Source of the DNA: Syntrophorhabdaceae bacterium
Lineage (GTDB): Bacteria; Desulfobacterota; Syntrophorhabdia; Syntrophorhabdales; Syntrophorhabdaceae
Assembly (NCBI GenBank): GCA_963665295.1
Contig: OY762209.1
Location: forward strand, 352,001 to 416,000
Reading direction: 5' to 3'
DNA length: 64,000 nucleotides
Shown: positions 38,834 through 59,700 of the stretch, one piece after another
Layout of the letters: every line of letters starts with the position of its first letter
Numbering within the stretch: position 1 is the first letter of the stretch
Translations under genes and position numbers: made by a program
Notes under the pieces: model-generated
Databases searched by the model: none
What the model was told of the DNA's origin: nothing
The model's input: the letters and a program-made list of their open reading frames with translations, nothing else

Positions 38834-38893
38834 CCATGGGAAGGTCCTGCCTCTCTCCGGGAGTCCCGATGAAGACGGGAAGATTGGCCTGCA

Positions 38894-39376: not shown

Positions 39377-39434
39377 TGAGACGTCTCTCCTCCACCGACA
39401 GGGATAAGACCCGGGACAATTCTCCGTGCTGCCC

Positions 39435-41255: not shown

Positions 41256-41403
41256 AAGACACGGCTGGGCGTGGCCCCGGAACAAGCCCTGTTTCTCCCC
41301 TTCTCTGAGCAACCTGTACCGCCGCCGGACTCATAATCTCTTGCTTTGTCCGTCAGATTCTCCGATAATGTGGGCTAACGATCGAAATGGGGAGGTTCAA
41401 GGG

Positions 41404-42294
41404 ATGAAAAGAAGGACTACTCTTCTGAGAGAGCTTATCATGGACGAGGAGATCCTGGTTCTGCCGGGGTCCTACGATGCACTCTCTGCAAGAATCATCG
41501 AGCAGGCAGGATTCAAGGCGACCGTGGTCGGCGGCTATGCCGCCTCTGCGTCGATTCTCGGGAAACCGGATGTTTCCCTGCTCACCTTGACGGAGATGGT
41601 CGACCGGGCGCGGTATATTGCGGACGCGGTGGAAATACCCGTCTTTCTGGATGGCGACACGGGCCACGGAAACGTGACGAATGTGGCAAGAACCATAAGG
41701 GACTTCGAGAAAGCAGGAGTGGCAGGCCTGTTTCTGGAGGATCAGGTATTCCCCAAACGATGCGGACATATGGAAGGAAAGCGGGTGATTTCCACGGATG
41801 AAATGATAGCAAAGCTCGGCGCTGCAAAGGACGCCAGGGAAGATCCCGACTTCGTGATCATGGCCCGCACCGATGCCCTTGCAGTGGAAGGGATCGATAA
41901 AGCCATAGAAAGAGGCAACAGGTACCTTGCGGCGGGGGCCGACCTTGTCTTTGTGGAAGCCCCTACTTCCGGGGAGGACATGCTGAGAATCACCCGGGAG
42001 GTGAAAGGACCGACCTTCGCAAGTATGATCGAAGGGGGAAAGACCCCACGGTTCACGGCAAAACAGCTTCAGGATATGGGGTTCAGCGTGGTGGCGTACG
42101 GCCTTTCTATGGTCTATGCGGCATCGTGGGCCATGAGAATGCTCGCCGGGGAGCTTCACGCCTCCGGGACCACCGACGGGTTCCGGGACCGCATGATTAC
42201 CTTCGACGATTTCAACCGGCTGGTAGGCCTCGACGAAATAAGGGCAAAGGAGGCAAAGTACAACGTCGATAGTGCGGGGCCTGAAGGTTCATGA
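41404..42294 (+). CDS. Isocitrate lyase/PEP mutase superfamily enzyme (methylisocitrate lyase-like)
   Basis: DGDTGHG, EDQVFPKRCGH, ARTDA. GGAGG RBS before 41404. Confidence 0.88.
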   Translation: MKRRTTLLRELIMDEEILVLPGSYDALSARIIEQAGFKATVVGGYAASASILGKPDVSLLTLTEMVDRARYIADAVEIPVFLDGDTGHGNVTNVARTIRDFEKAGVAGLFLEDQVFPKRCGHMEGKRVISTDEMIAKLGAAKDAREDPDFVIMARTDALAVEGIDKAIERGNRYLAAGADLVFVEAPTSGEDMLRITREVKGPTFASMIEGGKTPRFTAKQLQDMGFSVVAYGLSMVYAASWAMRMLAGELHASGTTDGFRDRMITFDDFNRLVGLDEIRAKEAKYNVDSAGPEGS

Positions 42295-42553
42295 CATCCG
42301 TTGTTGAGTATGCCGCCGATTCTGTCCACCGAAAGGAGCCCTTGCTGAAACTCGTTCCACACGTTGACGAGGCGGAGGAAGGGCCTGTGAACTGCCCGGC
42401 GGACATTAGTGCTTGCGGGGAGTTCCCGGACGGCCCGATAATGGCTTTCGGGAGGAGGCGTTGCAGCGCCTTCTCCCTCCGGACCCTGTTGCCGGCTTTT
42501 CACACGTGGGCCTGCCGTTGCTGCACTATCACGTCAGGAACGCCCAAGCGCAG

Positions 42554-43657
42554 CTACAAAATCGATCTGCGGCCGTTGTACCTTTCCTTATCATAATATT
42601 TTTCTATATCGACAAGTTTCAATTTGTTGATTACCCCTTTCAGGGGAACCGTGGCAATTTCACCGTGCACAAGACTCACCATGCGTCCAAAATCCCCGTT
42701 GATGATCATATCCACCGCGGCGATGCCGAACCATCTGGCCATAAGGCGATCCCGTGCCGAAGGGGTTCCTCCCCGCTGCAAATGGCTCAGGATGAGGTGA
42801 CGCGATTCAAGCCCTGTCTGTTTTTCTATTTCGCCGGCCACATAACTTGCTATTCCCCCGAGGGAGGGGTGTCCGAACTCATCTACCTTATTGTCTTTCA
42901 GGAATTCGGGCCTTCCCGCAGCCTTCGCTCCTTCGGAAACGACAATGATGGAATATTTTATTTCCCGTCCCCGCCGTTCGCGAAGAAGTTCGCAGACCTG
43001 ATTCATATCGAACAAATACTCCGGTATCAAGATGATATAGGCGCCACTGCACTCTCCGCCGTGGAGGGCGAGCCACCCTGCGTGACGCCCCATTGTCTCG
43101 ACGACGAAGATCCGGCTGTGGGAACCGGCGGTAGTCCTCAATCGGTCAATTTCCTCCATGATCACATTCACGGCAGTGTCAAAGCCGAGAGAATAATCGG
43201 TTCCCATGAGGTCATTATCAATAGTCTTGGGAATCCCTACCGTTTTGATGCCCAGTTGATGCAACTTATAGGCAACGCCAAGGGTATCCTCGCCTCCAAT
43301 CGCGACAACCACATCTATTCCCAGCTTCTTGATATTCTCGATCACCTTTTCAGACCGGTCATGTTTGGGATTAAAGGGGTTTGTCCGCGAGGTGCCCAGG
43401 TTTGTCCCGCCATAGCGGTCCCACGTGCGGACGACCTCCTCATCAAGGGGTTTGATGTATCGTTCGCAGCTTTTCGGATCATCCGGCTCAACCTCTGCCA
43501 ACCCCTTCCACCCTTCGGTGATACCCACCACTTCAAACGAAACGGATCGTTTTCCCGTGAGCTTTGCATCAAGGGCGCTCTTTGTTACCCACTTGATTGC
43601 TCCGTTAAGGCCCGGGCAATCTCCTCCGCCGGTCAGCACTCCTATTTTCATATTCAT
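42554..43657 (-). CDS. pfkA: 6-phosphofructokinase (PfkA family), probably PPi-dependent
   Basis: GGDCPGLN, GGEDT, PKTIDND, ETMGRHAGW. Confidence 0.9.
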   Translation of the reverse strand: MNMKIGVLTGGGDCPGLNGAIKWVTKSALDAKLTGKRSVSFEVVGITEGWKGLAEVEPDDPKSCERYIKPLDEEVVRTWDRYGGTNLGTSRTNPFNPKHDRSEKVIENIKKLGIDVVVAIGGEDTLGVAYKLHQLGIKTVGIPKTIDNDLMGTDYSLGFDTAVNVIMEEIDRLRTTAGSHSRIFVVETMGRHAGWLALHGGECSGAYIILIPEYLFDMNQVCELLRERRGREIKYSIIVVSEGAKAAGRPEFLKDNKVDEFGHPSLGGIASYVAGEIEKQTGLESRHLILSHLQRGGTPSARDRLMARWFGIAAVDMIINGDFGRMVSLVHGEIATVPLKGVINKLKLVDIEKYYDKERYNGRRSIL

Positions 43658-44076
43658 AGGTTTCTCCTTTTACAAAAATCTAAAGCTCCCATTCGGATTG
43701 TCGGCATCGGGCATAAGCCGGAGGGTTGGAGCGCCTTCAGCAAAAACTCCACGTTCCATGGTCCTGTTGCCGATAGTCCCTATTTCATATATAGCACAAT
43801 AGTAAAGGATATTCTATCAATGACTCGAGGATTCCGCCGGCTCCCGCACAAATGACCGTATACAAATGTCGCGTTGGGGAACAGGAATGGATATGCCTTG
43901 TTCGCACCGCGCTTTTTCGATATTTATATAAAGTTCCTGAACCACCGTGAGACGATGGGCAACTCCTTTACATAAGCAAAGACCAACGGCGTACCTCATT
44001 CAGGGCCCTTACACAATGAACAAACGGGTGTATTATACTTAGAACAGGTTATAATATTTATCACGGAGCAAAAACC

Positions 44077-45821: not shown

Positions 45822-46310
45822 GGTATTCCCCAGTTCATCCGCTATCTTGATCCGGTCATTAAGGCCCTATAGGAGTTGGGAGGGTCCGGTACTCCGTCCG
45901 AGGTCGTCGAAATAGTGGCCAAGCTGAAGAACGTCTCTGAGGACGAGCAGAAGGAGACGCCCAAGACAAGAGCCTCCCGATTCGTAAACCAGGTCCGGTT
46001 CGCCCGCCAATACCTTGTGTGGGAGGGGCTGCTTTCATCCTCAAAGCGGGGAATCCGGAGCCTCACAGAGAAGGGAACGCAGACGGAGGATATATCACAA
46101 CATGCCGTTGCCCTCGAAATGTTCGAGCGGCTGCACATGCTCCACTCTTCAGCGAAGAAGGAGAAGCCGGAAGCGTCCGTCCACGGGGAAACGATCACAA
46201 CAGCCGGAGACAGCGGACCAGCGGCGAAGCGCTACCCGTGCAACAACGTTGAGTCCTCCTTCCGGTCAGACCCCGCGAGGCGTCACGGTTTCGCCTGTTT
46301 CACCGTGTAG
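45822..46310 (+). pseudogene. mrr: Remnant of an Mrr-type restriction endonuclease (N-terminal wHTH only)
   Basis: Frame reads GIPQFIRYLDPVIKAL*ELGGSGTPSEV...SRFVNQVRFARQYLV..GLL.SSKRG..SLTEKG. In-frame TAG at 45870, no start codon, no catalytic domain. Confidence 0.7.
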
Positions 46311-47311
46311 GTCTTTTTTGCCTTGTTCGCAGTTGCAATTGCCGTAATGCTCCCGCTCCTTGCAGCCTTGGTCGTATTGGGCCCTACCGCGTAGTCCACC
46401 TTTCCCGTACCCGTGCCGGAAGCTCCGGGGGTGATGGTGATCCAGTTCTTATTCGCGCCGGCAGTCCAAGCGCAGTCGCCGGGACTTGCAGTTATGTCGA
46501 AGGAGCCTGCGCCTCCGCCTGCGTTGATCAGACCGGAAGAAGAAGCGCTGAGGGCAAGACTGCACGGCACACCGGTCTGGTTTATGGCAATGGAGCTATT
46601 CCCGATACTCAGTTTGCCGGAACGGTTGACCGAGCTTGCATATGCGGGTATGGTGATCATTATTGTCCCTTTGGTATTGCTGAAGGTACTCGTATATTCA
46701 ATCCAGTCCCCTTCTTTGAATATGTCGGGAGAGGGGCAATAACTTGAACCCTTTGCCGTAATCGTTGCAGTAAACTTCCCTCCTTTATAGGTAACCGTCT
46801 TTTTAACAGGAGAGAGGGTATAGACGCACGCGCCTGTATTGAATTGAGCGCCCACGGCCTTATTCGCGTTCATGGAAATCGTGCAGGTGGTAGTGCCGCT
46901 GCACACACCTGACCATCCTATGAAGAGAGACCCCGTCCCGGCGGCAGGCCTTAGGGCCACCTTCGTGCCTTTCGTAAAACTTGCGGCGCACGTGTCACCA
47001 CAGTCGATTCCCGGGGAGTTCGAGGTGACCGTGCCTGCGCCGGTGCCGGACTTGGTGACCGTGAGGGTGTAGCCCGGTACCGAGGGCACAACCGCCTTGG
47101 TGATTATGTTGCCTGCTCCATCGTAGGTGTAAGTGAGGGACCGTCCATTGCCATAATCGGCCTTAGTGAGCCGTCCGTTGGCATCGTAGGTGTAGGTGAT
47201 TGAGGCGATTGCGACAGCAGGGGGGACACACAAGGCGAGAGCAATCCCGATGACGGCGATTACCGTGACATAGAGAGAGACTTTGCGGAGTGTACGGGTG
47301 AGAGGCCGCAT
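46283..47311 (-). CDS. Secreted protein: short YD/RHS repeat, InlB-B-like repeat and two BACON-like Ig domains
   Basis: Signal peptide from ATG 47311; YTYDANGRLT...YTYDGAGN; LTVTKSGTGAGTVTS...F.GWSG.C; C.WTA.....WI.......G.G.V.Y.V..N.....R.G.I. Confidence 0.8.
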   Translation of the reverse strand: MRPLTRTLRKVSLYVTVIAVIGIALALCVPPAVAIASITYTYDANGRLTKADYGNGRSLTYTYDGAGNIITKAVVPSVPGYTLTVTKSGTGAGTVTSNSPGIDCGDTCAASFTKGTKVALRPAAGTGSLFIGWSGVCSGTTTCTISMNANKAVGAQFNTGACVYTLSPVKKTVTYKGGKFTATITAKGSSYCPSPDIFKEGDWIEYTSTFSNTKGTIMITIPAYASSVNRSGKLSIGNSSIAINQTGVPCSLALSASSSGLINAGGGAGSFDITASPGDCAWTAGANKNWITITPGASGTGTGKVDYAVGPNTTKAARSGSITAIATANKAKKTYTVKQAKP

Positions 47312-47351: not shown

Positions 47352-50300
47352 CTATTCATTTTGGGTGCAAACGTTCTCTGTGCCTGACGCACTATCGCTC
47401 CTGTATTCTGAATTATCCTCTGTCTCGCCTTCCGGGAGAGCCTTTTCAATCCCTGATTTGACAGCCATATCCGGAATTTTGGAAATATGAACACCTTCCG
47501 TCATGGCATCTACCATAATCGTCTTGTCAACTTCTTCTATAACTTTACCGCCGCTTTGGGCAAGTCTGTACATCTTGTCGGCTTCATTCTGGGGATTGTA
47601 AGCCTCAATACCTTTCTTCTTGTTGCCCTCCAGCATATCGCCGATGGTTTGGGGTTTCCCCTCCTCCTCTACATAATTTTTCGTCTCTTCCGCAAATCCC
47701 AAAAATTTCTTGATTATGCCGAATAACCCCAATCCATAAGGGTCCACGTCCTTCACCGGGTCGTTGTTCACGTAAACATAAAGATTCGTCTGTCCCCCTC
47801 TGAAACCTAGAGGGTCCTTCTGTATGAAGCGCCCCGTGACGGCATCGTAATAACGGTTCTTCATGAAATAGAGTCCGTTACCCTCATCCATCACTCCATG
47901 GGCGCCCACGTAGGCAAAAGGATTCGCTATGGAACCGGTCTTGTTCAGGATCTCACCGAAGGGCGCATAGATGTAGGCCGCCTCAACGGCGCCCGTACCG
48001 CCCGTCAGGGCCACCGTATTGCCTGTTTTGTCGAAGTGGAAGAAATAATACCCGCCTGCCGGCGTTCCCATAGCCACAAGACGTTTGCCTGCGTAAATAT
48101 AGTATGCGGAAATCTGTCCGGAGGTGTCTGCCTGGAATAACAGGGTCTCTGCCTTATCATAATAGTAATTCGCCGTCTGCGCACCGGTTGTCGCCTTTGT
48201 TCTGTGTCCAATGCCGTTATAGGTGTAGGATGTTGTGGCCGTCCCGTCCCGGGTTATGGAGGTCAACCTGTTTTCGGTGTTGTAGGAAGCGCTCAATACC
48301 TTACCCCCGGTTACTGCGGTGAGATTGCCGTCAGCGTCATGGGTATACGTACTCTTTCCAAAAGAAACCATCTGATTCGCGTCGTTAAATGTGCCTGACT
48401 CTGTCGCCTGTGTCAGCACAGGGGAAAGCAAAGATACGGTGCCGGTCTCCTGCGTCACACTGCCGAGAGAATTCCTGCTGTAGTTCGTATCGATAAACGG
48501 GGAGGAGCCCTTCGAATGGGTAATCCGGGTCACCAGGTTTCTCTTGTCGTACGCATACGAGGAGACTGTCCCGTTCGAGCGGGTTTCACTGAGCAGATTA
48601 CCTGCCGGATCGTATGAAAAGGTTATCCAGCCACCTCCCCATGCCACTGAAGAGACCCTGTTCCTCTTATCGTATGTATACGTTGCGGTCACTCCGCCGG
48701 GATAGCCGATGGAGCTATACCTGCCCACTGCGTTGTACGAGAAGGCCGTTGGGTTTGCATCCGGATAGGTGACCCCTGTCACCCTGCCGACCGCGTCGTA
48801 CGTATACGATGTGGTGCCTGTGGCGTCTTGTATTTGAATGAGATTGCCTGCCTTGTCGTAGCTGTACTGCGCGGAAAGAGTCAGGTCGCCGTCGGATTCC
48901 GACTTCCAGGCAAGCCGGCTATCAGCGGTATAGCCGTAGTGCATGCGTTTCCCCCTGCCATTTTCCCAGAAAAGGAGCCGCTTCGCTCCGTCCCATACGG
49001 TCTTCGTGGTGTTTCCCAAGGGATCGGTTGTCTGCCAGGGCATGCCGTTCATGGACGAAAAAGTGGTGGTTTTTCCCCGCTCGTCCTTGAGGGAGGCCGG
49101 ACTCCAGTTACCGTCGTAAGTCATTGTCTTTGTCCCGCCCAGGGGGCCTGTTACCGACGAAGGCCTGTAAAGTTGGTCGGGCGAGACCGAGACGACCGAT
49201 TTGTCGGGCTTTACGACCCCAACAAGGGTGTTTGTCGCATCGTAGCTATATGTCGTTTTATTGCCCATAGGATCGGTTACGCTTACGGGCTTAAGCACGC
49301 CATTTCGTTCAATAACGGTATGATTGTCGTTTTCGTCGATTATCCCGGTCACACTGCAACAATCATATTCGAAGGTCTTCTGAGAACCGTCGGCGTAGGT
49401 GATGCCGGTCAGGCGGTGATTGTCGTCATAGGCGTAGGAAGTCGTATTCCCCAGCGGGTCTGTATCGGAGAGCTTCAGGATGTGTGAATTGTCATAGGTC
49501 TTGGACCACGTGTCTCCCAGGGCATTCATCGAAGAGACGAGCTTGCCGAAGGAGTCATAACCGAAGGATGTCACGTTGTCCAAAGGATCGGTGACGGACG
49601 ACAGGAGGCCCAGCGTCGTGTAGCTCATGCTATGGGTGTTGCCCAAAGGAGATTGCACGGCGGTAAGGTTATGATTGTCATCATGCTGAAAGTTAAAGGT
49701 ACCACCTACCGGTGTGGTCATGCTTATGGGGTTGTTATTCGCATCGTAGGTCAGAGTCGTTGCCTGATAGCCGGGCCGGGTCTGATAGGAGGTCATGTTT
49801 CCCGCTGCATCATAGGTGAGGGATCTCGCGAGTCCGAGGGAGTCCGTGTATGAGGTAAGCAGTCCGTCCGTGTAAACCTTTTGCGTGGTGAACCCGAGAG
49901 GGTCTTGCGTTCCGGTGCCGGCGGGAGAGCACAAGGACGAGGCCCCTGCGTTGGCATAGTATGACTTATTTCCCAGGGGGTCTACCGCAACGTTTCCGGG
50001 CGAATACGCTTTCTGATAGGATTGGGTATTCCCCAGTGCATCTGTGACCGTGGCGAGGCGTTTCGGGACCACCGTGGCATCATAGGTGAATGTGGCAGTC
50101 TTGCCCCCAACGGTCATGCCGGTCATATAGCCGTCCGCGTCGTAGGTGTAAAGAGTATGATTTCCTGCCACATCGACGGTCTCAGTTAAATAGCCCGACG
50201 AATCATACGAGTAGGACGCGGTCTTGCCGTTCGGAGCCGTCATCGAGGTGCAGCGTCCGTTCGCGTCATACGCGAAAGAGGTGACACGTCCTGCGGCGTC

Positions 50301-50831
50301 GGTGACGGTCGATATATTCCCTCCGGAATCACGGGAGATCAGGACGGCATTGCCGTTTCTATCGGTGATGGAGGAGAGAAGCCAGGCAGGGGTTGAACCC
50401 AACAGGAGAAAGTCAAACTTCGATTGCGTGAAATCGCTCTTCGCCTCATGGACCCAGTAATCGGTTTTGTCTGAGGCGCGGTAAAAGTAGGTCATCGTAT
50501 CGCGGTTGTCCGGAGGGTATGTTGGGGAAAGAGCCGTTTGCAGGTTCGAGGAACCCCCGGAACAAACAGCGGCGGTCTTGCTGAAGGATATGAAACTGCC
50601 GTCACCCCGGTGGAGAACGGCAGGCGTTGTGCTGCATAGAGGAGCCGAAACGTCCAGGTCGTATGAGAAAGCCCATCCACGACCGAACATGCCCGAAGCC
50701 GTGTTGTTGGAATTATACGCATGGGTCATTGAAATTTGCGGCCCTAGTCCTGAGTAAGCAAAATCAGTGTCGGATACAACAAGGCTTAACGCCCCCGTGT
50801 TTACCCAGTACCTGGGTAAGCCCATCCGCAT
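47352..50831 (-). CDS. RHS/YD-repeat protein body (plug region, YD shell, core, 125-aa tip); probably the C-terminal part of one gene starting at 51473
   Basis: Many YD repeats and core GLYFMKNRYYD...GRFIQKDP.G...N.Y.YV.N.P....DPYGL. No RBS or signal peptide at 50831. Confidence 0.9.
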   Translation of the reverse strand: MRMGLPRYWVNTGALSLVVSDTDFAYSGLGPQISMTHAYNSNNTASGMFGRGWAFSYDLDVSAPLCSTTPAVLHRGDGSFISFSKTAAVCSGGSSNLQTALSPTYPPDNRDTMTYFYRASDKTDYWVHEAKSDFTQSKFDFLLLGSTPAWLLSSITDRNGNAVLISRDSGGNISTVTDAAGRVTSFAYDANGRCTSMTAPNGKTASYSYDSSGYLTETVDVAGNHTLYTYDADGYMTGMTVGGKTATFTYDATVVPKRLATVTDALGNTQSYQKAYSPGNVAVDPLGNKSYYANAGASSLCSPAGTGTQDPLGFTTQKVYTDGLLTSYTDSLGLARSLTYDAAGNMTSYQTRPGYQATTLTYDANNNPISMTTPVGGTFNFQHDDNHNLTAVQSPLGNTHSMSYTTLGLLSSVTDPLDNVTSFGYDSFGKLVSSMNALGDTWSKTYDNSHILKLSDTDPLGNTTSYAYDDNHRLTGITYADGSQKTFEYDCCSVTGIIDENDNHTVIERNGVLKPVSVTDPMGNKTTYSYDATNTLVGVVKPDKSVVSVSPDQLYRPSSVTGPLGGTKTMTYDGNWSPASLKDERGKTTTFSSMNGMPWQTTDPLGNTTKTVWDGAKRLLFWENGRGKRMHYGYTADSRLAWKSESDGDLTLSAQYSYDKAGNLIQIQDATGTTSYTYDAVGRVTGVTYPDANPTAFSYNAVGRYSSIGYPGGVTATYTYDKRNRVSSVAWGGGWITFSYDPAGNLLSETRSNGTVSSYAYDKRNLVTRITHSKGSSPFIDTNYSRNSLGSVTQETGTVSLLSPVLTQATESGTFNDANQMVSFGKSTYTHDADGNLTAVTGGKVLSASYNTENRLTSITRDGTATTSYTYNGIGHRTKATTGAQTANYYYDKAETLLFQADTSGQISAYYIYAGKRLVAMGTPAGGYYFFHFDKTGNTVALTGGTGAVEAAYIYAPFGEILNKTGSIANPFAYVGAHGVMDEGNGLYFMKNRYYDAVTGRFIQKDPLGFRGGQTNLYVYVNNDPVKDVDPYGLGLFGIIKKFLGFAEETKNYVEEEGKPQTIGDMLEGNKKKGIEAYNPQNEADKMYRLAQSGGKVIEEVDKTIMVDAMTEGVHISKIPDMAVKSGIEKALPEGETEDNSEYRSDSASGTENVCTQNE
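50801..50819 (-). promoter_or_regulatory. Candidate bacterial SECIS hairpin
   Basis: UUACCCAG-GUA-CUGGGUAA begins 12 nt after the in-frame UGA at 50834-50832; the apical loop starts with G. Confidence 0.55.
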
Positions 50832-51473
50832 TCATGAGCCCGGGCCCGTGCCCTTTTTGTTCTGGTATTTTCTGATCCGGGGCTTGCCCGGTCCAGTCCG
50901 CTCTTCGCAGTAATTTCCGTCGGGATTGATGTCATCACCCCCGAACAGACTCGCGCGGCAAGGATCATAGTTGGCAATCTGAAAGCGCATCTCGATGTTC
51001 GTGACCCCGGAGCCCTGTCCGTCACTGCTGTAAAAAAGGGTAAATTCTCCTGCCCTTGTGGGGATATAAAATGACGTCGACAGGGTCATAGGCGACTTGC
51101 AGGGGAAGACGCAGGTCTTCGAATATATCCATTGGAAATAAAACTGATTTACCAGGTCGCTTATGTCGTAATAGCCAAACCAGAACGCGGGATATGTGCC
51201 CTGGGTCGGCGTGACCGAGGCATTGAAAGTGATCTCACTGCCATAAGGGGGATCGGTCATCGCGTAGTTGCAGATCCAATAATTGGTATCTGCCTTGTAA
51301 ACGCACGAAGTGCCTAAACCGAAAATGCTGCTTGCCGGTATGCCCTGAAAATCCCAGGTGATTGTCTCTCCCCCTGCAACAGAAGTAAAGCCATGGCTGC
51401 GTGACGGATAAGAAAAAAACCACGTCAGAAGAACTAAACATAAAACAACGAAAATTGTCCCACTGCGACTCAT
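50832..51473 (-). CDS. Signal-peptide-bearing N-terminal segment of the RHS protein, ending at an in-frame TGA
   Basis: AAGGA RBS before ATG 51473 and signal peptide MSRSGTIFVVLCLVLLTWFFS. Same frame as, and abutting, the RHS ORF. Confidence 0.75.
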   Translation of the reverse strand: MSRSGTIFVVLCLVLLTWFFSYPSRSHGFTSVAGGETITWDFQGIPASSIFGLGTSCVYKADTNYWICNYAMTDPPYGSEITFNASVTPTQGTYPAFWFGYYDISDLVNQFYFQWIYSKTCVFPCKSPMTLSTSFYIPTRAGEFTLFYSSDGQGSGVTNIEMRFQIANYDPCRASLFGGDDINPDGNYCEERTGPGKPRIRKYQNKKGTGPGS

Positions 51474-51673: not shown

Positions 51674-54600
51674 TCACTCTCCCGCATGAAGGGTTATTCT
51701 GAATTCTGTCCCTCCATTCCTCTCAAGCTCTATGATCCCTTCAAGCTGTTCCACGAGGGTAACCACAAGCTGCATGCCCAATGACTGGGTATTCATGAAA
51801 TCAAGGTCCCGCGGGAACCCTACGCCATTGTCAGAGACAACCATGGTCCTATGCATTTCGTCAGCATAAAAGCCTATTCTCAGAACTCCTCCCACCTTCT
51901 CCGGGAAGGCATGTTTCAAGACATTGGAAATAAGTTCATTGAGAATAAGTCCAAGAGGTATGGCCGTTTCGATATCGAGGGATATCGGTGCAACGTCGAG
52001 CTTCAAGCTTATGCCTTTGCCTGGTGCATACGTAGTGATGAGATTGTACGTGAGGTCTTCTACATACGCCGGAAAGTAGATGCGTGACAGGTTTTCCGAC
52101 CGGTAGAGTTTATCGTGAATAAGCGCCATTGCTTTCACGCGGCCCACACTCTCCACGAATATATCGCGGGCTTTCGGGTCATCAAGATATCTGGACTGGA
52201 GGTTAAGCAGACTGGACATGATCTGGAGATTGTTTTTCACCCTATGGTGTATCTCTTTGAGGAGGACCTCTTTTTCCTTCAGGGAAGCTTTGATGGCGTC
52301 CTCGGCTTCTTTGCCGGAGGTGACGTTCATGGCCGCACCGCGATACCCTGTGAGCGTGCCATTGCCATCCAAGATAGGGACAAGGGTGGCGCTGAGCCAT
52401 ATCGCTCGCCCCGACTTGACGATGGCCTGGTGCTCAAGATCCCTGAAGCCCGTGCGGGTCCGTACGTGTTCCTTGAAAATGTGCAATGTGCGCGATCTTT
52501 CGGACGGAGGCAGAAGATCAAAGGGTGTCTTCCCCAGTAGCTCCTCTGGTGTAAATTCCAGAACATCTTGAGCCCGATCACTGATAAAGGTGATGCGGCC
52601 GTCGACATCGAGCTCAAATATATACTCTCCCGCCGCCTCGCTGATATCCCTGAACCTCTCTTCACTTTTCTTAAGGGCAGCCTGGGCTTGTCTTTGGGCG
52701 AGAGCGATGGCCATCTGCTCACAGGCGCCCTCCAGGAAGGAGATAAGTTCCGGGGTAAACCGGCCTTTCTTGTGATCATTGAGCTGCAGTAAACCTATTA
52801 TGGCGCCCCCGTATTTCAAGGGGATCAACGCCACGGACTCGTAGCCTTCGCCGTTGCACCGGTTGCGGGTTCTCGCCTGGCGGTCCTCTTCAGTGGTACT
52901 TACAAGGAGGTCCGTGGTGCAATTGCTCCAGAAGCTTCCGCCGGAAGTGAAGAAGGGGAACTTAGGATCGAACCTGCCGGAGAGGATGTTACCACACATG
53001 CACTCCAGGACGGGGTTGCCCATGTCGTCCTTGAGCAGTTGACCATCCAAGTCTCTTGCGCAGAGGGAACGCTCTGCTTCCACAAATTCCCGGGGGAATC
53101 CTTTGGTTTCGAAGTAGGGAAAGTCATCGCCCTCCTTGAGACGGACACCTACCGCCTCGCAACCGGTCCATTCCTGGAGATACGCAGTAATGGCACGAAT
53201 TAGCTCGTAAGTGTGGTTCTCGTCGTTGAGGAACCTTAGGAGGATAAGGGTGGTCTCCCTTTCACGCTCGATGCGCCGTTCGTCTGTCACGTCCCGGAAG
53301 AAGCCCTGCATGAGCTTGACGTCATCGACCGTGACAGTGTCGGTTTTGATCTCCACTTCCCTAATCCTTCCATCCTTGGTCAGAAGATAATCAGGGAGCG
53401 TCTCGCCCAACCCCTGGGAACGATGGAGCATGAAGGAACGGGACATCCCGGGGCTACCCTCTTCGGCGGGATGAAGCATGGTCTGGGGCTTTCCGATAAT
53501 TTCCGACCGGTCGTACCCGGTCATCCGGAGAAAGGCCTCGTTACAACTCTGGAATGTTCCGGTTTCGTAATCCGCGAGGGCAATTCCCACTGTCGCCTCG
53601 TTAAAGAGCAGGCGGTAACGGCGTTCGCTCTCCCTGAGGGCTTCCTCGGCGCGCTTACGGTCGGTGATGTCGATGACAATCCCGACGAGGCTCACTACCC
53701 GGCCATCGGCATCCTCCAAGGGACCGCCTCTTGACATGAGCCATCGGATTGTGCCGTCCGGATAAACAACCCGCCACTCGGTGGTCAATTCCGTTCCTTC
53801 CCGGGCTGCTTTCCGGACTGCATCCTCGCTATGCTTGCGGTCGTCGGGGTGGATCGTCTTTATCCAGCGCTCATAGGAGGGTTCACAGGAATAAGGCTCA
53901 AGGCCATACAACCTCCAGAGTTCATCAGACCAATAATTTTCATTCGTCCGAAGATCCCATTCCCATGTGCCGGCACTCGCCGCCATCTGAGACAGGCGGA
54001 ACCTCTTTTCGTTCAGCCGAAGGTTATCCTGTGCTCGTTTCTGTTCGGTAACGTCACGCACATGCTCAACAACCATCGTAACATGGCCCTCATCGTCAAA
54101 CAGAGGGTAAGCGTTTGCTTCCTTGTAGAGTTTGGTAGTCGGGTTGTAAAACTCTACAAGAGCGGGCTTTCCGGTCTTGAAGACCTCCAGAGCCCGACAT
54201 CCTTCGCAGGGTGCGTGGCGATTGATAAAAGTCTCATAACAAGGGACATTTACAGGGAACTCATCAAGGCCGGCACAGAGGGGGGACTTCCAGTTGGACA
54301 CAAGAACTTTCAGATCTCTATCAAGCACCACAATGAGGTCATCGGTGGAGTTGAGGACGCTTTCGAGGAGCATCTTGGATTTCTTCAGTTCGTTCTCGGC
54401 GCGTTTTCTCTTGGTGATGTTTGTGTGGGAGACCAGAACTTTCCCTGGCTCATCTAGGAGCGGTGTTGAGCGCATGACGAACCAGCGCTGCTTTTCAGGA
54501 GAATGACAGGGATACTCTACCTCGAAATGAGGAAGGGCGCCTCGTTGAACCTGGCGGATTCCTTCAAAGGCTTCCTCGGCAGAATCTGTGTTCCCCGCCT

Positions 54601-56323
54601 CCGATGCCCATGATTTGAAATACTGTGCCCCCACTCCCCACGTCTGTTCGTCGCCCGCGTTGTTCGATTCGGCAAAGCGACGCCACGCATCGTTTATCTC
54701 CAGAACCCGTCCGTCCGGGCCTATGACGGCCTGGTGGGCGTCGGTGGAATTGAAGACCCGGTGCCAGAAATTGGATAGGAAGGCAAGGGCTTTCTCGGCG
54801 CTCTTTCTCTCGGTAATGTCTCGACAGATGCCTAACAGCGCCGGTTTACCATCCCACGTGATCAGTTGCGCACTCACCTCCGTGGGCACAAGTGATCCAT
54901 CCTTGCACCTGTGCACTGTTTCAAACCTTAGTCGGCCTTGCTCCATCAGCTTCGCGATGCGCTCCCGGGCGTGAAGGGCTTCCTCCGGTGTATCCAGATG
55001 GTGGAGCATCGCTGAAGTAAGTTCTGTGGGGGTGTAGCCAAGCTGTTCTGCAGCCCTGTCGTTGGCAGCGAGTATCCTTCCCTCTCCATCGGATATAATG
55101 ATCGTGTCATTGGCGCCGTCAAAGAGGAGCCGGTACTTGGCCTCGCTCTCCTTAATGGCCTCCTCTGCCTTTTTTCGCTCATTGATAATCTCCGAGAAGA
55201 GGATGATCCCCCCGACGTTCCCGTTTTGGTCATACCACGGAAGCAGCTCCCAACTCACCCAGTCCAGAGCGCCGTCCTTCCGTGGGAGCGAATCCTCCTT
55301 GCATTGCGCAGGCTCACCGGCCAGACCTCGCCGGTGAGCCTCTTTCCAGCGCTCCGGGGTCTCAGGGAATATGTCGTAGTGACTGCGACCCATGATATCC
55401 TGATCCGACAGGCCATAATCGGAGATCCATCGGCGGCTTACCGCCATGTATCTCATGTCGCGGTCAAGCATGGCTATGGCTGCGGGGGCGTGGTTAATAA
55501 ACAAGCGTAGTTTCTGCTCCGCCTCGCGCAGGTCTTTTTCCACCTTCTTGTGTTTGGTGATGTCCGAAAAGATGCACGCAAATTGCAGTGGTGCATGCCG
55601 GTATGCGGTAACCTCATAATGCCGCCTTAAGTTTCTACTGTATTGTTCGAAATGCAGTTGGGTACCCTTTATAGCCACTTCCCCATACTTTTCAATCCAC
55701 ACGGGCTCTATCCCAGGGAGTACCTCTTTTACCGTCTTTCCAATCAGTTCCTTTCCTTTTAACCCGGTGAGCCGCTCGAAGGCCGGGTTGACCGCAAGGA
55801 AACGATAGTCCATGGCGTTGCCTTCCTCGTCCAGTATAATCTCGTGAACCGCAAACCCATGCACCATGTTGGTAAATATGTTGCGATACTGTTCCTCGCT
55901 TTTCTTCAGCAGATTCTCCTTGATTTCAAGCCCTTTGTGAGCTGCGTAGAGCCTTAACGCCACCTTGATGCAAGCATCAAGGACCGTGATGCCGGAATCC
56001 TTCTCCACGTACCCGTAAGAGGTTATGTTCCCGGTCTTTTCCACTACATCTTGTTCTGTGTGGCTGGAGAGGAATACTATCGGTATATCATGTTCTCTGA
56101 GAATCACCCGAGCGGTCTCGGTTCCGTCCATCCCCTTGCAAAGATTGATGTCCATGAGGATCAGGTCTATGTCGGGTGTATTGCGTGTCAAGTCTATGGC
56201 TTCTTCACCACTGAAAGCGGTGATGACATAATAGTCATACTTCTGGAGAGTCTTCTTCCGGGCGAGAGCTATGAGTGTTTCGTCCTCGACCAGCAGGATG
56301 GTCCGTTTCTGAGACATGAACAT
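51674..56323 (-). CDS. Cytoplasmic sensor kinase: REC, multiple PAS, GAF, PAS, HisKA_2, HATPase
   Basis: N-terminal REC, repeated PAS/PAC units, EIHHRVKNNLQ, NELISN..KHAF, DNGVG. Start 56323 or 56317. Confidence 0.92.
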   Translation of the reverse strand: MFMSQKRTILLVEDETLIALARKKTLQKYDYYVITAFSGEEAIDLTRNTPDIDLILMDINLCKGMDGTETARVILREHDIPIVFLSSHTEQDVVEKTGNITSYGYVEKDSGITVLDACIKVALRLYAAHKGLEIKENLLKKSEEQYRNIFTNMVHGFAVHEIILDEEGNAMDYRFLAVNPAFERLTGLKGKELIGKTVKEVLPGIEPVWIEKYGEVAIKGTQLHFEQYSRNLRRHYEVTAYRHAPLQFACIFSDITKHKKVEKDLREAEQKLRLFINHAPAAIAMLDRDMRYMAVSRRWISDYGLSDQDIMGRSHYDIFPETPERWKEAHRRGLAGEPAQCKEDSLPRKDGALDWVSWELLPWYDQNGNVGGIILFSEIINERKKAEEAIKESEAKYRLLFDGANDTIIISDGEGRILAANDRAAEQLGYTPTELTSAMLHHLDTPEEALHARERIAKLMEQGRLRFETVHRCKDGSLVPTEVSAQLITWDGKPALLGICRDITERKSAEKALAFLSNFWHRVFNSTDAHQAVIGPDGRVLEINDAWRRFAESNNAGDEQTWGVGAQYFKSWASEAGNTDSAEEAFEGIRQVQRGALPHFEVEYPCHSPEKQRWFVMRSTPLLDEPGKVLVSHTNITKRKRAENELKKSKMLLESVLNSTDDLIVVLDRDLKVLVSNWKSPLCAGLDEFPVNVPCYETFINRHAPCEGCRALEVFKTGKPALVEFYNPTTKLYKEANAYPLFDDEGHVTMVVEHVRDVTEQKRAQDNLRLNEKRFRLSQMAASAGTWEWDLRTNENYWSDELWRLYGLEPYSCEPSYERWIKTIHPDDRKHSEDAVRKAAREGTELTTEWRVVYPDGTIRWLMSRGGPLEDADGRVVSLVGIVIDITDRKRAEEALRESERRYRLLFNEATVGIALADYETGTFQSCNEAFLRMTGYDRSEIIGKPQTMLHPAEEGSPGMSRSFMLHRSQGLGETLPDYLLTKDGRIREVEIKTDTVTVDDVKLMQGFFRDVTDERRIERERETTLILLRFLNDENHTYELIRAITAYLQEWTGCEAVGVRLKEGDDFPYFETKGFPREFVEAERSLCARDLDGQLLKDDMGNPVLECMCGNILSGRFDPKFPFFTSGGSFWSNCTTDLLVSTTEEDRQARTRNRCNGEGYESVALIPLKYGGAIIGLLQLNDHKKGRFTPELISFLEGACEQMAIALAQRQAQAALKKSEERFRDISEAAGEYIFELDVDGRITFISDRAQDVLEFTPEELLGKTPFDLLPPSERSRTLHIFKEHVRTRTGFRDLEHQAIVKSGRAIWLSATLVPILDGNGTLTGYRGAAMNVTSGKEAEDAIKASLKEKEVLLKEIHHRVKNNLQIMSSLLNLQSRYLDDPKARDIFVESVGRVKAMALIHDKLYRSENLSRIYFPAYVEDLTYNLITTYAPGKGISLKLDVAPISLDIETAIPLGLILNELISNVLKHAFPEKVGGVLRIGFYADEMHRTMVVSDNGVGFPRDLDFMNTQSLGMQLVVTLVEQLEGIIELERNGGTEFRITLHAGE

Positions 56324-56721: not shown

Positions 56722-59700
56722 TCAACCTTTCGGCCCGTTTGGCAAGACTTCCTGCCGGGCATCCAGCACATCTCTCACCTTTTGCAGGAGGACATTGGGC
56801 AAGATGGGCTTTTGGAGGAAGTTAAACTTCTCGTCCTCGATGCCTTTATCCAGGAACACGTCTCTCGTGTAGCCGCTCGTGAAGATAACCCGGATATCCC
56901 ATTTGATTTTGCATATCTCATTATAGGCTTCTCTCCCGTTCTTGTTCGGCATCACGGAGTCGAGGATGAGAAGATCTATCTTATCAGTTGTCTTAAACTG
57001 TTGTATTGCGTCCAGCCCGTCAACTGCCTCAATGGTCGTATACCCGTATTCATTGAGTATCTTGCAGATGAGACGCCGAACCGCCTCATTATCTTCCACA
57101 ACCAGAATCGTTTCATCGCCCCCGGTCGAAGGGACCGCCGCCGGATGTTCTTCCTGACTTGTTTCGCTCGCAGAAGGAAGGTAGATGTGAAAAGTCGTCC
57201 CAATGTTCGGTTCGCTGTATACGGTGATATAGCCATTATGCTGTAGTACGATTCCATAGACCGTCGAAAGCCCGAGGCCCGTTCCTTTTCCCGTCGCCTT
57301 TGTGCTAAAGAAGGGGTCAAAGATCTTTTCCCGCGTTGCCTCATCCATGCCCATACCTGTGTCGGATACGGAGAGGAAAGCATATCGCCCCGCCTTTCCG
57401 TATCCGTGGAAACGCTCGAAATCATCGCTCAGCTCTACCATTCTCGTCTCTACAGTAAAACTCCCCCCTTGCGGCATGGCGTCCCGGGCATTAGTAGCGA
57501 GATTGAAGAGTATCTGGTCAATCTGGCTTACATCAGCCATAATCGTGATGTCGTTGGGAGCCAGGACTGTCCTGATGGATATGTCCTCGGTGAGGAGGCG
57601 ATTCAGGAGTTTTTCTGTCCCTTTGATAATGTCGTGTAAACTAACCGGTCTCAGACTGATGGCTTGCTGCTTGCTGAAGGCTAAAAGACTCTGGACAAGG
57701 TCCGTCGCTTTCTTTGAAGCAGAGAGAATCTGATCCACATAAGTTTGCAAAGTCGCATCATTTATCCGCATCTTGAGAAGAGCTGCATATCCTACAAGGG
57801 CCGTAAGGATATTGTTGAAGTCGTGGGCGATACCTCCGGTCAGGGTGCCTATGGCCTCCATCTTCTGTGACTGGAGGAGTCTGGTTTCGAGGCACCTGAA
57901 CTCGGTGACGTCGGTCACGCACTCTATTGCCCCCACCACTTTTCCGTTCCTGTCAAAGAGCGCCGCAGCATGGCCGGACAGGAAAGCGCCCCTTCCCTTG
58001 TAAGTTTCGGGCACAAATGTTTCGGCGTGCAGTCGGCACCCTACTCTCCTTATTGATTGATATTTCTGTTCCAGTTCACAAGAATCTGTTGTAACATAGT
58101 CGATCAGAATGGGCCGTGCTTCCCCATAAAAGGGGATGGCGTACGCGTAATTGCCCTTGCCGATGACATCTCTTTTCGGCACGCCTGTCATCTCTTCGCA
58201 GGCACGGTTCCACGCTACCACCTTCTTTTCATTGTCGATAACTAAAGTTGCCTCGGGCAGGAATTCTATGATGTCGAGAAGCTGCTGATGAGTGGCAAGG
58301 AGCTCTTCTTCCGCCCTTTTGCGAGCCCTGATGTCCTTCCACATGGTGTACAAGATCCGTTTTCCACGAAAAGGTATTACCGTGTGAGAGACCTCGACCC
58401 AGAATTCCTCTCCATCAAAAGTGCGGCGCATCCATTCGAATCGATTGACCCCTGTCTTGAGTGTGGTCTCAATCAGCTCCCGGGCCTTCTCTGAGGATAA
58501 ACGGCCATCAGGCTGGAATTCAGGAGAAACATCGGATGGGCTCAATCCAAGGAGTTGGTCCCTGCTGCACCGCATGAGCTTCAGTGCGGCTTCGTTGCAG
58601 TCTATGAACGTATCTCCATTCATGAGGAGTGTGGGGTCACCGGATTTCTCGAACAGGAGCCTGAACTTCTCTTCGCTTTCCTGGATGGTCTCTTCCGCCT
58701 CCCGGATCTCCCTTTCGTGCCGATCCCTCTGGAGCCTCGCGCTAAGTATGGGCGCCACATAGTCCGATATACCTACCAGAAAACCCCTGTCATTGTCGTC
58801 GTAACCGCCCACCTTATTTGCGAGCGAGATCAGTCCTATGGTCTCATTGCTGAAAACAATCGGCACAGTAAGGAAGCAGTCTATGGGGAGGTGTCCTTCC
58901 GGCGTCAGAAAAGGCCCCTCGGAGTAGAAAGCCCTCTTCTCTCTGATCGCTTTTCCCCACACACTCCCTCCCCATGTGGAGGACGGAAAAACAACTGATT
59001 TGTCAATAACCTGACATTCGCTCCATATTTCCCTGGTTAGACTCGGTATGACGAGATTGCCCTTTTCGTCTATGAATCCAAAAATACCGAACCTGCTCCC
59101 CGTGGCCTCAAGAACAACAGTGAGCACGTCGGCGTACATCGATTCATCGGGAATGGTGAGAAAGATATTCGCTATCCGGTTCATTATCGTCTTTCTCTGC
59201 TCCGACTTCTGCAACTCTTCCTCTGCCCGTTTCTTTTCTGTTATATCCTCGACAGTACCCTCGTAATACGCAATCTTTCCGTGGGAATCCGTGACAGCGC
59301 GGGAATTCGTCGATATCCACACCCTGCTTTTGTCCCGTCGGTAGAGCTGGATCTCAAATTTTGACGCAAAGCCCTGTCTCTCGTAAAGTTCCTTTAATCG
59401 CGCCCTGTCTTCGGCGTTGACATATAACTGATCCTGTATGTTCGTGACCGCCTGCATCATCTCCGCAGGGGAGTCAAAACCATAGACCCTCGCATGGGAC
59501 TGGTTCATGCCGATGAATCTTCCATCCGGGGTGGACTGGAAAATACCCATAACTGCATCTTCAAAGATACCACGGTATTTTGCCTCCGCTTCCCTAAGAT
59601 CATTTTCTGCTTTCTTGAGGTCCGTGATGTCGCGCACAATTGCGGACGCACCCACAACCCTGGCTGAAGCATCCTTGACAGGAGATACCGTAAGGGAAAC

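Follow-up and report, generated by a model that had tools for sequence, protein, structure and literature searches.

A Candidate Selenocysteine Codon at the Entrance of a Predicted Secreted RHS Toxin Cage in a Syntrophorhabdaceae Bacterium

Two Open Reading Frames Adjoin at an In-Frame UGA

The window analyzed here is a 64,000-nt stretch of a Syntrophorhabdaceae bacterium genome (assembly GCA_963665295.1, contig OY762209.1, positions 352,001 to 416,000). All parts of the locus under study lie on the minus strand of this window, where a 213-codon ORF carrying a signal peptide, a TGA and a 1159-codon RHS ORF make up one frame. The upstream ORF runs from an ATG at 51473 to codon 213 at 50835-50837 and ends in ..KKGTGPGS, the TGA occupies 50832-50834, and the downstream ORF extends from an ATG at 50831 to a TAG stop at 47354-47352, its 1159-aa product beginning MRMGLPRYWVNT. 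An earlier note on this DNA had described two same-frame ORFs abutting at the TGA and had proposed that they encode a single protein of 1373 aa broken at residue 214. The coordinates bear this out; when the TGA is read through, the joined frame encodes 1373 residues, the TGA standing at residue 214, and it contains this one TGA and otherwise no stop. The TGA is our proposed selenocysteine codon on the basis of the frame, the cysteine column of homologs and the TGA in relatives. Contigs from four public runs (two studies, some of them possibly the source of the assembly) showed zero differing letters at the junction, and the assembly error that the note had asked about was not seen.

Only the upstream ORF has the features expected at the start of an exported protein. 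By eye, AAGGA precedes its ATG, and no similar ribosome-binding site was found ahead of the RHS ORF; a hydrophobic N-terminus is present in the upstream ORF and in all homologs, in agreement with the note, which had placed both signals upstream only. The start codon (51471-51473) and a predicted Sec-type signal peptide (residues 1-27, MSRSGTIFVVLCLVLLTWFFSYPSRSHG) cover 51393..51473, with a cleavage site inferred after residue 27, and in the model of a Cys-form homolog the hydrophobic stretch forms a helix over residues 2-20.

Domain Architecture and Genomic Neighborhood

The signal peptide is followed by a beta-sandwich domain (about residues 28-175, 50949..51392), whose strands have pLDDT >90 in an AF2 model of a homolog (P0122). 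It matched no Pfam and no NCBIfam family, and its Foldseek matches were all of a generic Ig-like kind (E about 1e-3). A basic, Gly/Pro-rich linker (residues 176-213, 50835..50948), with pLDDT <50 in both AF2 models, ends in an invariant G-P-G-x immediately before the TGA. DUF6531, the RHS N-terminal plug region, spans joined residues 226-297 (residues 12-83 of the RHS ORF; 50583..50798; Pfam PF20148, E 5e-10) and starts 12 residues after the TGA, which fits the note's placement of the break just ahead of the plug. The RHS/YD-repeat shell occupies 47970..50582 (PF05593 in 11 stretches, E 1e-81; PF25023; TIGR01643); a shell model of a homolog has a mean pLDDT of 88.9, and the best PDB sequence match, 8h8b, covers the shell repeats only. 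The RHS repeat-associated core domain (residues 1169-1248, 47730..47969; TIGR03696, E 7e-20) ends in DPYGL. Beyond it lies a C-terminal tip (residues 1249-1373 plus the TAG stop, 47352..47729) that differs between loci, being wholly different among the window gene and its relatives in genomes G408 and G194, and that matched no Pfam family. Plug, YD/RHS shell, RHS core domain and variable tip thus follow one another in the layout of RHS polymorphic toxins, and judging from the sequence the tip is presumed to be the toxin cargo.

Next, at about 46283-47311 on the minus strand, comes a gene for a protein that has a signal or anchor sequence, two RHS repeats and a BACON domain, unlike a typical small immunity protein, and the small ORFs beyond it matched no family. 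The other neighbors encode PAS sensor kinases, an AsmA-like protein and an ABC exporter. We found no PAAR, VgrG or prePAAR N-terminus in the protein and no T6SS genes in the neighborhood. As described in their reports, RhsA, a T6SS protein of Pseudomonas protegens (PMC8765631), and BiTLP, a teneurin-like protein from Bacillus inaquosorum (PMC13018210), have the same layout as the window protein: a YD shell is combined with an N-terminal plug, the RHS core carries a C-terminal autoprotease motif of the DPxGL type, and the tip is variable. Unlike these proteins, the window protein lacks PAAR, VgrG and a T6SS context and is predicted to be exported by a signal peptide; its N-terminal domain is an unannotated beta-sandwich, and its conserved junction residue is Cys or Sec rather than Ser or Pro.

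Cysteine and TGA Alternate at the Junction Column

Homologs that exist as a single fused protein (P0004-P0008 and P0010; 1310-1397 aa, 41-47% identical) have Cys exactly at the TGA column in six of six cases, within the context '..KGAGPGKC[AS][RK]..GLP' ('GPGKC..MGLP'). The note had named Trp or Arg at this column as an adverse outcome, and neither was found there in the fused homologs. In the wider subfamily, whose members carry many unrelated N-terminal domains, 27 of 45 sequences have Cys at column 214. The one Cys form whose DNA was read (L019) uses the codon TGC and lacks the hairpin described below; a Cys relative that kept the hairpin had been put forward in the note as the sign of a simple nonsense mutation.

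Other relatives end at this same column. A search for short N-terminal ORFs yielded 37 candidates and six matches including the window's own; the five others (59-83% identity) all terminate at GPG[SR]-stop. When 1.84 billion representatives were searched with a profile, 16 matches came back, namely 13 short proteins (22-57% identical) that all end in GPGx, one fused Cys cluster and two weak matches. These 18 further short ORFs (5 + 13) are known by their protein ends, while the TGA itself was read in four DNA loci: the window, L020 (labelled Thermodesulfovibrionales), L021/G194, and L030/G408 (same phylum as the window). The codon is TGA in all four of these Sec-type loci with readable DNA, which represent two phyla, and alignments A3, A5 and A6 show no variation at G210, P211 or G212. 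Past the TGA, the RHS frame stays open for 1150 codons in G408 and 1210 codons in G194. In L021/G194 the N-terminal ORF is broken by a deletion with a frameshift, and the L020 locus is cut by the end of its contig. With the same TGA and the same hairpin at four of four Sec-type loci and 18 more ORFs ending there, the concern that the TGA might be private to this strain is refuted. The gene is rare: a sample of 401 genomes of the phylum contained three in which it was found, and it was found in none of the 60 closest relatives.

A Candidate Bacterial SECIS Element Follows the UGA

The putative SECIS element (50801..50831) consists of a 12-nt spacer (50820-50831), the 5′ arm of the stem UUACCCAG (50812-50819), the loop GUA (50809-50811) and the 3′ arm CUGGGUAA (50801-50808). 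The note's perfect 8-bp stem 12 nt past the UGA was recovered at 50801-50819, with CAGGU at nt 21-25 when the U of UGA is counted as 1; the E. coli fdhF SECIS has its apical CAGGU at 20-24 by the same counting. Folded alone, the hairpin has an energy of -9.4 kcal/mol. The bSECIS consensus quoted in PMC13188914 comprises an apical loop of 3-9 nt, an upper stem of 4-16 bp, a G within the first two loop positions, a UGA-to-loop distance of 16-37 nt and an MFE <= -7.5 kcal/mol. With a 3-nt loop starting G-U, an 8-bp stem, 20 nt between UGA and loop, and the energy given above, the hairpin falls within every one of these bounds. No curated SECIS covariance model matched in 50500-51100 (Rfam cmscan, E up to 10), and the sole Rfam match in this interval was a spurious one to an unrelated lncRNA model (E 1.3); bacterial SECIS elements are described as diverse in the same review (PMC13188914).

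To put the hairpin in context, we considered the in-frame TGAs of this genome that have >=60 open codons on each side, in any frame. A hairpin at least as good, in the same position window, accompanies 39 of these 5306 TGAs (0.7%), so that the hairpin alone is unusual yet not decisive, and it is conservation that carries the weight. After the TGA and a 12-nt spacer, all four Sec-type DNAs carry [U/A]U[A/G]CCCAG-GUA-CUGGGUAA. At positions where all four loci share a residue, the codons are identical at five of five positions inside the stem vs three of 26 outside it (Fisher p = 3e-4). Likewise, PRYWVN, the peptide encoded by the hairpin, is exact in 13 of 14 RHS matches that begin at the motif, taken here as putative TGA-cut forms, vs 3 of 30 Cys forms (p = 1e-7). 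The stem includes TTA. The genome has a G+C content of 54.7%, and a rough tally of its long open frames puts the share of TTA among Leu codons at about 2.5% and that of GTA among Val codons at about 16.5%. No compensatory base changes were found in the stem among the four loci, the 3′ arm being invariant and the sole stem change, in L020, being U-A to A/A plus A-U to G-U; structural support therefore depends on the frozen codons.

Selenium Machinery of the Host Genomes

The genome encodes selB (372 bits), selA (582 bits) and tRNA-Sec (68.7 bits), together with two copies of selD, one of them Sec-type with a TGA at 'VRGAG*ASKIGPGD'. It also has a pair of FDH-like genes, each containing a single TGA. 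The machinery whose absence would have spoken against the note is thus in place. The comparison with the genome's fdh elements that it had suggested also came out in its favor: the SelD and FDH SECIS elements show comparable spacing and an apical GGG/GGU. In the other host genomes, selB scored above cut-off in three of three and selA in two of three; with the window's own genome, selB is found in all four.

One Selenoprotein or Two Genes

Each refutation test that was run came out favorably, which supports the selenocysteine reading. Judged from these sequence comparisons, the two adjoining ORFs very probably constitute one gene encoding a 1373-residue secreted RHS toxin cage, in which UGA codon 214 is read as selenocysteine. 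SelB-GTP-Sec-tRNA(Sec) would bind the hairpin while the ribosome stands on the UGA, Sec would be inserted, and the full-length chain would be exported via the Sec translocon using its N-terminal signal peptide. When selenium or SelB is limiting, translation would stop at the UGA and yield only the 213-residue beta-sandwich protein, making production of cage and toxin selenium-dependent.

The principal alternative is that the UGA is a true stop between two coupled genes, such that a 213-aa protein is secreted, re-initiation at the adjoining AUG gives a cytoplasmic RHS protein, and the fused Cys forms arose secondarily by gene fusion. Gene callers separate the two ORFs everywhere, and an ATG adjoins the TGA in the window, P0003, L020 and P0011 and occurs within 6 nt downstream in L021; an ATG right after the TGA makes termination followed by re-initiation mechanically possible. 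However, in L030 the 12 nt that follow the TGA (AGC GAG ACC GGA) contain neither an ATG nor another common start codon, so re-initiation there would need another site, and a Met also follows the junction in four of six Cys forms, so that on the sequence evidence this Met is ancestral. Two genes would also have to account for a stop that replaces, without an indel, a column occupied by Cys in much of the subfamily and that is TGA at every locus where it could be read. In addition, an RHS cage lacking a signal peptide or delivery domain would have no way out, and the frozen hairpin at SECIS distance would be left unexplained. We consider two coupled genes very unlikely.

A single chain could also arise from selenium-free read-through of the UGA by a near-cognate tRNA (Trp or Cys), programmed or leaky, with the hairpin as stimulator. 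Downstream RNA structure can stimulate read-through, and stimulation of this kind is possible in general. Yet the spacing, loop and energy of the hairpin all agree with the SelB-type consensus, the hairpin resembles the genome's own SelD and FDH elements, all four host genomes encode selB, and alternation of Cys and UGA is the classic signature of Sec; we regard near-cognate read-through as highly improbable. That the TGA is a Cys codon altered by a nonsense mutation, with the gene now a pseudogene, or by a mistake in sequencing or assembly, is extremely unlikely and nearly refuted. TGA is one substitution from TGC or TGT, and the G194 relative does have a damaged upstream ORF, but the contigs of the four runs agree, 18 more ORFs end at this column, and the TGA is shared with relatives 22-59% identical in the N-terminal domain that have long open frames on both sides.

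The gene with UGA 214 read as selenocysteine would resemble SelB-read selenoprotein genes (prototype fdhF/FdhA; also SelD), as covered in PMC13188914, in having a UGA at the Cys column of homologs, selA, selB, selC and selD in the genome, and a stem-loop just downstream with G-U opening a small apical loop, 20 nt from the UGA. It would differ from them in its product, a secreted RHS toxin cage of 150 kDa rather than an oxidoreductase or metal enzyme, and in the position of the Sec, which would be part of a G-P-G-x-U motif within a flexible linker, without a UxxC or CxxU partner. Among exported selenoproteins, Table 1 of PMC13188914 includes an FCYXU-type TonB-dependent receptor, a selenobacteriocin and DsbA/DsbG-like proteins. 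These share with the window protein Sec in an exported protein of anaerobes and Sec/Cys alternation among homologs, but they are receptors, small peptides and thiol-disulfide oxidoreductases, and none of them is a toxin-delivery cage. The note's statement that no RHS/YD selenoprotein had been described holds for NCBIfam, for the accessible part of the 2026 list of 119 prokaryotic families (PMC13188914 Table 1) and for literature text searches, none of which returned an entry. Selenium would replace a conserved cysteine at the cage entrance, and the selenoprotein family would be an uncatalogued one.

Possible Roles of Sec214

Sec214 is inferred to lie in the flexible linker, 4-12 residues ahead of the plug (DUF6531). 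The junction motif G-P-G-x-[C/U]-x(2-8)-G-L-P-x-Y-x-V-N-T is common to a broad RHS subfamily whose members have N-terminal domains of many kinds, and its junction residue appears to co-vary with Cys705, one of two vicinal shell cysteines (Cys705-Cys706, 'YDCC'; 49356..49361) that are Cys in 35 and 42 of the 45 members. Forty sequences have C, X or a cut at column 214, and 35 of them have Cys705. All five sequences without Cys at column 214 (about four lineages) have Ala705, but, as a point against the latch considered below, three of the five still carry a Cys 1-2 residues later. Similarly, '[YF]DCC' occurs in 32 of 46 motif-bearing RHS proteins vs 4 of 75 other RHS proteins; because the sequences share kinship, Fisher tests overstate the significance.

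This co-variation hints at a Se-S latch. Given Sec, our leading guess, which we hold at a little under even confidence, is that a selenenylsulfide (a disulfide in Cys forms) could latch the N-terminal linker to the shell. By analogy with chain breaks near the plug of other RHS proteins, Sec214 might instead be the nucleophile for N-terminal self-cleavage, a second guess that we think rather unlikely. According to the respective reports, the plug Cys C719 of BiTLP lies four residues before the chain break G723/S724 and its disulfide holds the fragments together (PMC13018210), and RhsA is cut N-terminally at P305 by a mechanism stated as unknown (PMC8765631). Weighing against a latch, AF2 gives no placement for the junction Cys (pLDDT <50, residues 1-23 of a shell construct from which the last ~190 residues were left out). 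The overall proposal that a covalent latch at the cage mouth works through Sec214, be it as a selenenylsulfide with Cys705 or as the nucleophile that cuts off the N-terminal domain, and that selenium gates the toxin, is a doubtful one. If the latch were real, selenium chemistry would tune cage opening, and selenium supply would decide whether the complete toxin is made or just the 213-residue secreted beta-sandwich. Bacterial toxin delivery would then have its first selenoprotein, and the G-P-G-x-C motif of a large RHS subfamily its first assigned function. A further conserved shell cysteine, Cys408 (50250..50252), is Cys in 42 of the 45 subfamily members, and in two of the three members without it Cys706 is absent as well.

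Gene organization at the in-frame TGA

The RHS (YD-repeat) gene on the minus strand (47352..51473) is composed of two open reading frames that lie in the same frame and abut at an in-frame TGA (50834-50832). The upstream ORF starts with the ATG at 51473, which is preceded by AAGGA, and its 213 codons encode a hydrophobic, signal-like N-terminus and end in ..KKGTGPGS directly before the TGA; it has no family in Pfam or NCBIfam. The downstream ORF runs from the ATG at 50831 to the TAG at 47354-47352 (1159 codons, beginning MRMGLPRYWVNT..) and contains DUF6531 from residue 12, eleven RHS-repeat stretches, a YD-shell and an RHS-associated core domain (Pfam, NCBIfam). Joined, the two give a product of 1373 residues with the break (X) at residue 214. 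An earlier note had described two same-frame ORFs abutting at the TGA, the upstream one with a signal peptide, as the ORF coordinates confirm, and its description of the junction was borne out in all details checked, the fdhF positions aside.

The candidate SECIS element and the selenocysteine machinery

The hairpin that the same note had placed 12 nt 3′ of the UGA was found at 50819-50801 on the minus strand (UUACCCAG-GUA-CUGGGUAA), where it forms a perfect 8-bp stem and folds by itself with -9.4 kcal/mol. It agrees in all four criteria with the bacterial SECIS consensus, as far as this is quoted in a 2026 review (PMC13188914). The stem contains the Leu codon TTA, which the note had pointed out as AT-rich; by a rough count, the genome uses it for 2.5% of Leu. 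In the SECIS elements of the genome's own selD and formate dehydrogenase (FDH) genes, the spacers are 11-13 nt long and the apical sequence is GGG or GGUCU; the comparison with the FDH elements that had been proposed places GGU at nt 23-25 in the RHS element vs 22-24 in the FDH genes. A scan of the junction with Rfam returned no SECIS family. The genome has 5306 in-frame TGAs flanked on both sides by 60 or more open codons, and for 39 of them (0.7%) a hairpin as good as this one or better lies in a comparable window. On its own, the RHS hairpin is thus only moderately beyond chance, and the decisive evidence is that from relatives. A crude genome-wide scan for TGA plus hairpin does not describe the selenoproteome; one of its candidates, at window position 10274, was an ABC permease behind an unrelated open frame.

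The genes for Sec insertion, whose presence the note had left to be checked (selA, selB, selC and selD), are all represented: the genome encodes selB (372 bits, cut-off 242), selA (582 bits), tRNA-Sec (68.7 bits, cut-off 47) and two copies of selD, one with a TGA at 'VRGAG*ASKIGPGD' and the second without. Two FDH-like genes likewise contain a TGA, at 'HCAR[TL]*H', and in both it is followed by a SECIS with a GGUCU loop. These selD and FDH-like genes are located at C1:5230927-5231841 (-), C1:5310425-5311156 (+), C1:3036039-3036761 (-) and C1:639779-640693 (+). Of the three other host genomes, all have selB above the cut-off and two have selA; the exception is G408, a genome that is 90% complete, where selA was not found.

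Homologs at the TGA column

A word-indexed search with query residues 1-420 gave 937 matches with E up to 1e-3 from 8000 scored candidates, and 120 of these were listed. Among the matches listed, all six fused full-length proteins (P0004-P0008 and P0010; 1310-1397 aa) carry Cys at precisely the TGA column, within 'KGAGPGKC-[AS][RK]-..-GLP'; Cys at this column in proteins spanning the junction is what the earlier note had named as support for Sec. Four closer relatives (P0003, which is 87% identical, P0009, P0011 and P0012) are annotated with a length of ~1160-1180 aa and start just past the TGA column. When the 213-residue ORF was the query, five short proteins (193-218 aa, 59-83% identical) were obtained, all terminating at GPG[SR] directly before the TGA column, and two of these are from contigs equal in size to those of P0003 and P0011. 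When 1.84 billion cluster representatives were searched with a profile, 16 matched, 13 of which were short proteins with identity down to 22%, all ending in G-P-G-x; the remainder were one fused Cys cluster (P0008) and two weak matches. All Sec-type (TGA-split) homologs in the databases searched appear as a small 'hypothetical protein' and an N-terminally truncated RHS protein, and Sec-type RHS genes would therefore be systematically mis-annotated as two.

DNA of related loci

DNA was read at four Sec-type loci (the window, L020, L021 and L030) and at one Cys-type locus (L019). The TGA is followed after 12 nt by UUACCCAG-GUA-CUGGGUAA in the window, in L021 (genome G194, labelled Thermodesulfobacteriota) and in L030 (genome G408, of the same phylum as the window), and by AUGCCCAG-GUA-CUGGGUAA in L020, on a contig labelled Thermodesulfovibrionales; L019 has TGC and no hairpin. 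The alternatives of a TGA private to this strain and a conserved one, set out in the earlier note, are thus decided for conservation, with TGA and hairpin in 4 of 4 Sec-type loci, including L030, whose N-terminal domain is barely alignable with that of the window (E 5e-10). After the TGA, the RHS frame is open for 1150 codons in G408 and 1210 codons in G194, with different C-terminal tips, while L020 is cut by the contig end. No compensatory base change was found in the stem across the four Sec-type loci. Residues common to the four loci have identical codons in 5 of 5 cases inside the stem vs 3 of 26 outside (p = 3e-4), and the exact stem-encoded peptide P-R-Y-W-V-N is present in 13 of 14 RHS matches beginning at the motif G-[LMIV]-P-x-[YFWH]-x-[VIL]-[NDS] vs 3 of 30 Cys forms, so that the constraint on the RNA is visible in the proteins, the significance of both tests being overstated by the relatedness of the sequences.

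At L021 (G194:C7 ~21900-22100), the N-terminal ORF is broken by a deletion, with residues 45-64 of the intact N-terminal homolog P0128 missing, and by a frameshift, despite which the TGA, the hairpin and the RHS frame of 1210 codons are intact. The copy is thus either in decay or wrongly assembled. A metagenome scan by two peptide patterns, which did not fit the Sec-type JGI homologs, recovered one locus, the Cys-form L019. When 401 genomes were scanned for the hairpin pattern with at most one mismatch, candidates in G306, G290, G079 and G094 were rejected because they are not RHS genes. At L032 (G306:C64:450-470), 21 nt identical to the hairpin sequence (TTACCCAGGTACTGGGTAAAC) lie antisense within an unrelated PHP-like gene; we judged this a coincidence, although, as a rough estimate, an exact 18-mer would occur by chance only ~0.04 times in the bases searched.

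One gene or two

Judged from these sequence comparisons, the two ORFs very probably constitute a single gene, whose product is a secreted RHS protein that has selenocysteine as residue 214, inserted by ordinary SelB/SECIS decoding. The small probability that remains is shared by termination and re-initiation, read-through without Sec, and an artefact or pseudogene. Re-initiation would give two proteins, and most Sec forms do have an ATG that abuts or nearly abuts the TGA, but in L030 there is no ATG in the 12 nt after it, and the Met is ancestral, being also present in Cys forms. With regard to an artefact, the TGA is invariant in contigs of four public runs (two studies, possibly including the source), with no TGC or TGT, which the earlier note had named as the sign of an assembly error. 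A stop retained at one column over divergence as great as that among the short proteins is no nonsense mutation.

Known bacterial selenoproteins are nearly all redox or metal enzymes, and Sec in a secreted RHS toxin cage would widen selenium's range of uses. Since the UGA is codon 214, selenium shortage would leave only the 213-residue secreted domain to be made, whatever the role of Sec, and toxin production would potentially be selenium-dependent. The earlier note knew of no described RHS/YD selenoprotein, and we likewise found none among the papers listed by full-text literature searches. Table 1 of the 2026 review, with 119 prokaryotic selenoprotein families/subfamilies, has no RHS, YD or DUF6531 entry, and the words Rhs, toxin and repeat are absent from its text (PMC13188914). 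No model in NCBIfam release 20 represents the N-terminal domain or a Sec-type RHS protein. We therefore file the putative selenoprotein as a new SelB/SECIS family, in an unprecedented protein class.

Conserved cysteines in the RHS subfamily

We surveyed 122 sequences of at least 700 aa, namely the 120 listed matches of 937, the read-through product of the window gene (P0001) and P0141. The motif is present in 47 of them. A Cys is located at most eight residues upstream of it in 30 of the 47, usually as G-P-G-x-C and behind many different N-terminal domains; 14 sequences start within eight residues of the motif; and the three with neither include P0001 and one spurious match. In an alignment of 45 sequences, shell cysteines are conserved as well (Cys408 in 42, Cys705 in 35 and Cys706 in 42), and '[YF]DCC' is nearly confined to the motif subfamily (32/46 vs 4/75 others). 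Column 705 is Cys in 35 of the 40 sequences that have C, X or a cut at column 214, and Ala in all five without Cys at 214 (about four lineages); of the three sequences without Cys408, two have lost Cys706 as well. The co-variation of columns 214/705 and 408/706 suggests two bonds, 214-705 and 408-706. In the Sec forms, the first would be a selenenylsulfide latch from the N-terminal linker to the shell.

Alternatively, Sec or Cys could act as the nucleophile for N-terminal self-cleavage. There are precedents in other RHS proteins: a plug Cys four residues before an N-terminal chain break forms a fragment-linking disulfide in BiTLP, a teneurin-like protein of Bacillus inaquosorum (PMC13018210), and RhsA, a T6SS effector of Pseudomonas protegens, undergoes N-terminal cleavage by a mechanism left unexplained there (PMC8765631). 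The present finding flags a Cys in this very region of RHS proteins that is conserved but unstudied: in a broad subfamily it stands at the N-terminal seal, as G-P-G-x-C ahead of G-L-P-x-Y-x-V-N-T. Sec/Cys pairs offer natural probes of chemistry of this kind.

The AF2 model of a Cys-form homolog shows, at residues 27-170, a beta-sandwich of high confidence, for which Foldseek gave only generic Ig-like neighbours and the ESM Atlas nothing above 0.80. The junction Cys lies in a low-confidence linker, with pLDDT <50 both alone and when modelled with 1000 shell residues (shell mean pLDDT 88.9), so that the models speak neither for nor against the latch. In a PDB sequence search, the alignments were restricted to the shell repeats and did not inform on the conserved Cys residues. 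Among the matches listed, the members of this subfamily, with G-P-G-x-C shortly before G-L-P-x-Y-x-V-N-T, the shell Cys408 and the 'YDCC' pair, lie within P0013-P0099. Ten RHS ORFs of ~1105-1175 aa (P0009, P0012, P0013, P0016, P0017, P0021, P0022 and P0025-P0027) start with 'MG[LI]PRYWVN' and are probably Sec forms as well, cut at the TGA and preceded by domains of other kinds.

Distribution and genomic surroundings

A survey of 401 genomes from the phylum found three with the gene, a search of the 60 closest relatives found none, and the genome itself has no paralog of the N-terminal domain. In the family of G194, 2 of 21 genomes were positive, both already known, and the exact hairpin 18-mer was found among 300 genomes of L020's phylum in L020's own genome only. 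A mobile polymorphic toxin would be expected to have such a rare, patchy distribution.

The RHS gene is immediately preceded on its strand by genes for two very large hybrid sensor kinases, next to each other (51674-56323 and 56722-61176, both minus; 1549 and 1484 aa), in which 5-7 PAS domains are combined with GAF, receiver and kinase domains. The downstream gene (46283-47311, minus), which most likely starts at Met62 of a 403-codon ORF, at ~47311, encodes a protein with a signal or anchor that combines two RHS repeats with an InlB-type B-repeat (Flg_new_2) and, at the C-terminus, a BACON domain, and that is not a typical immunity protein. No T6SS genes were found within the window. At 37493-43855 (plus), a radical-SAM protein, an ABC exporter, a PEP-mutase-family enzyme and a family-less 480-aa ORF may represent a phosphonate-type biosynthetic cluster.
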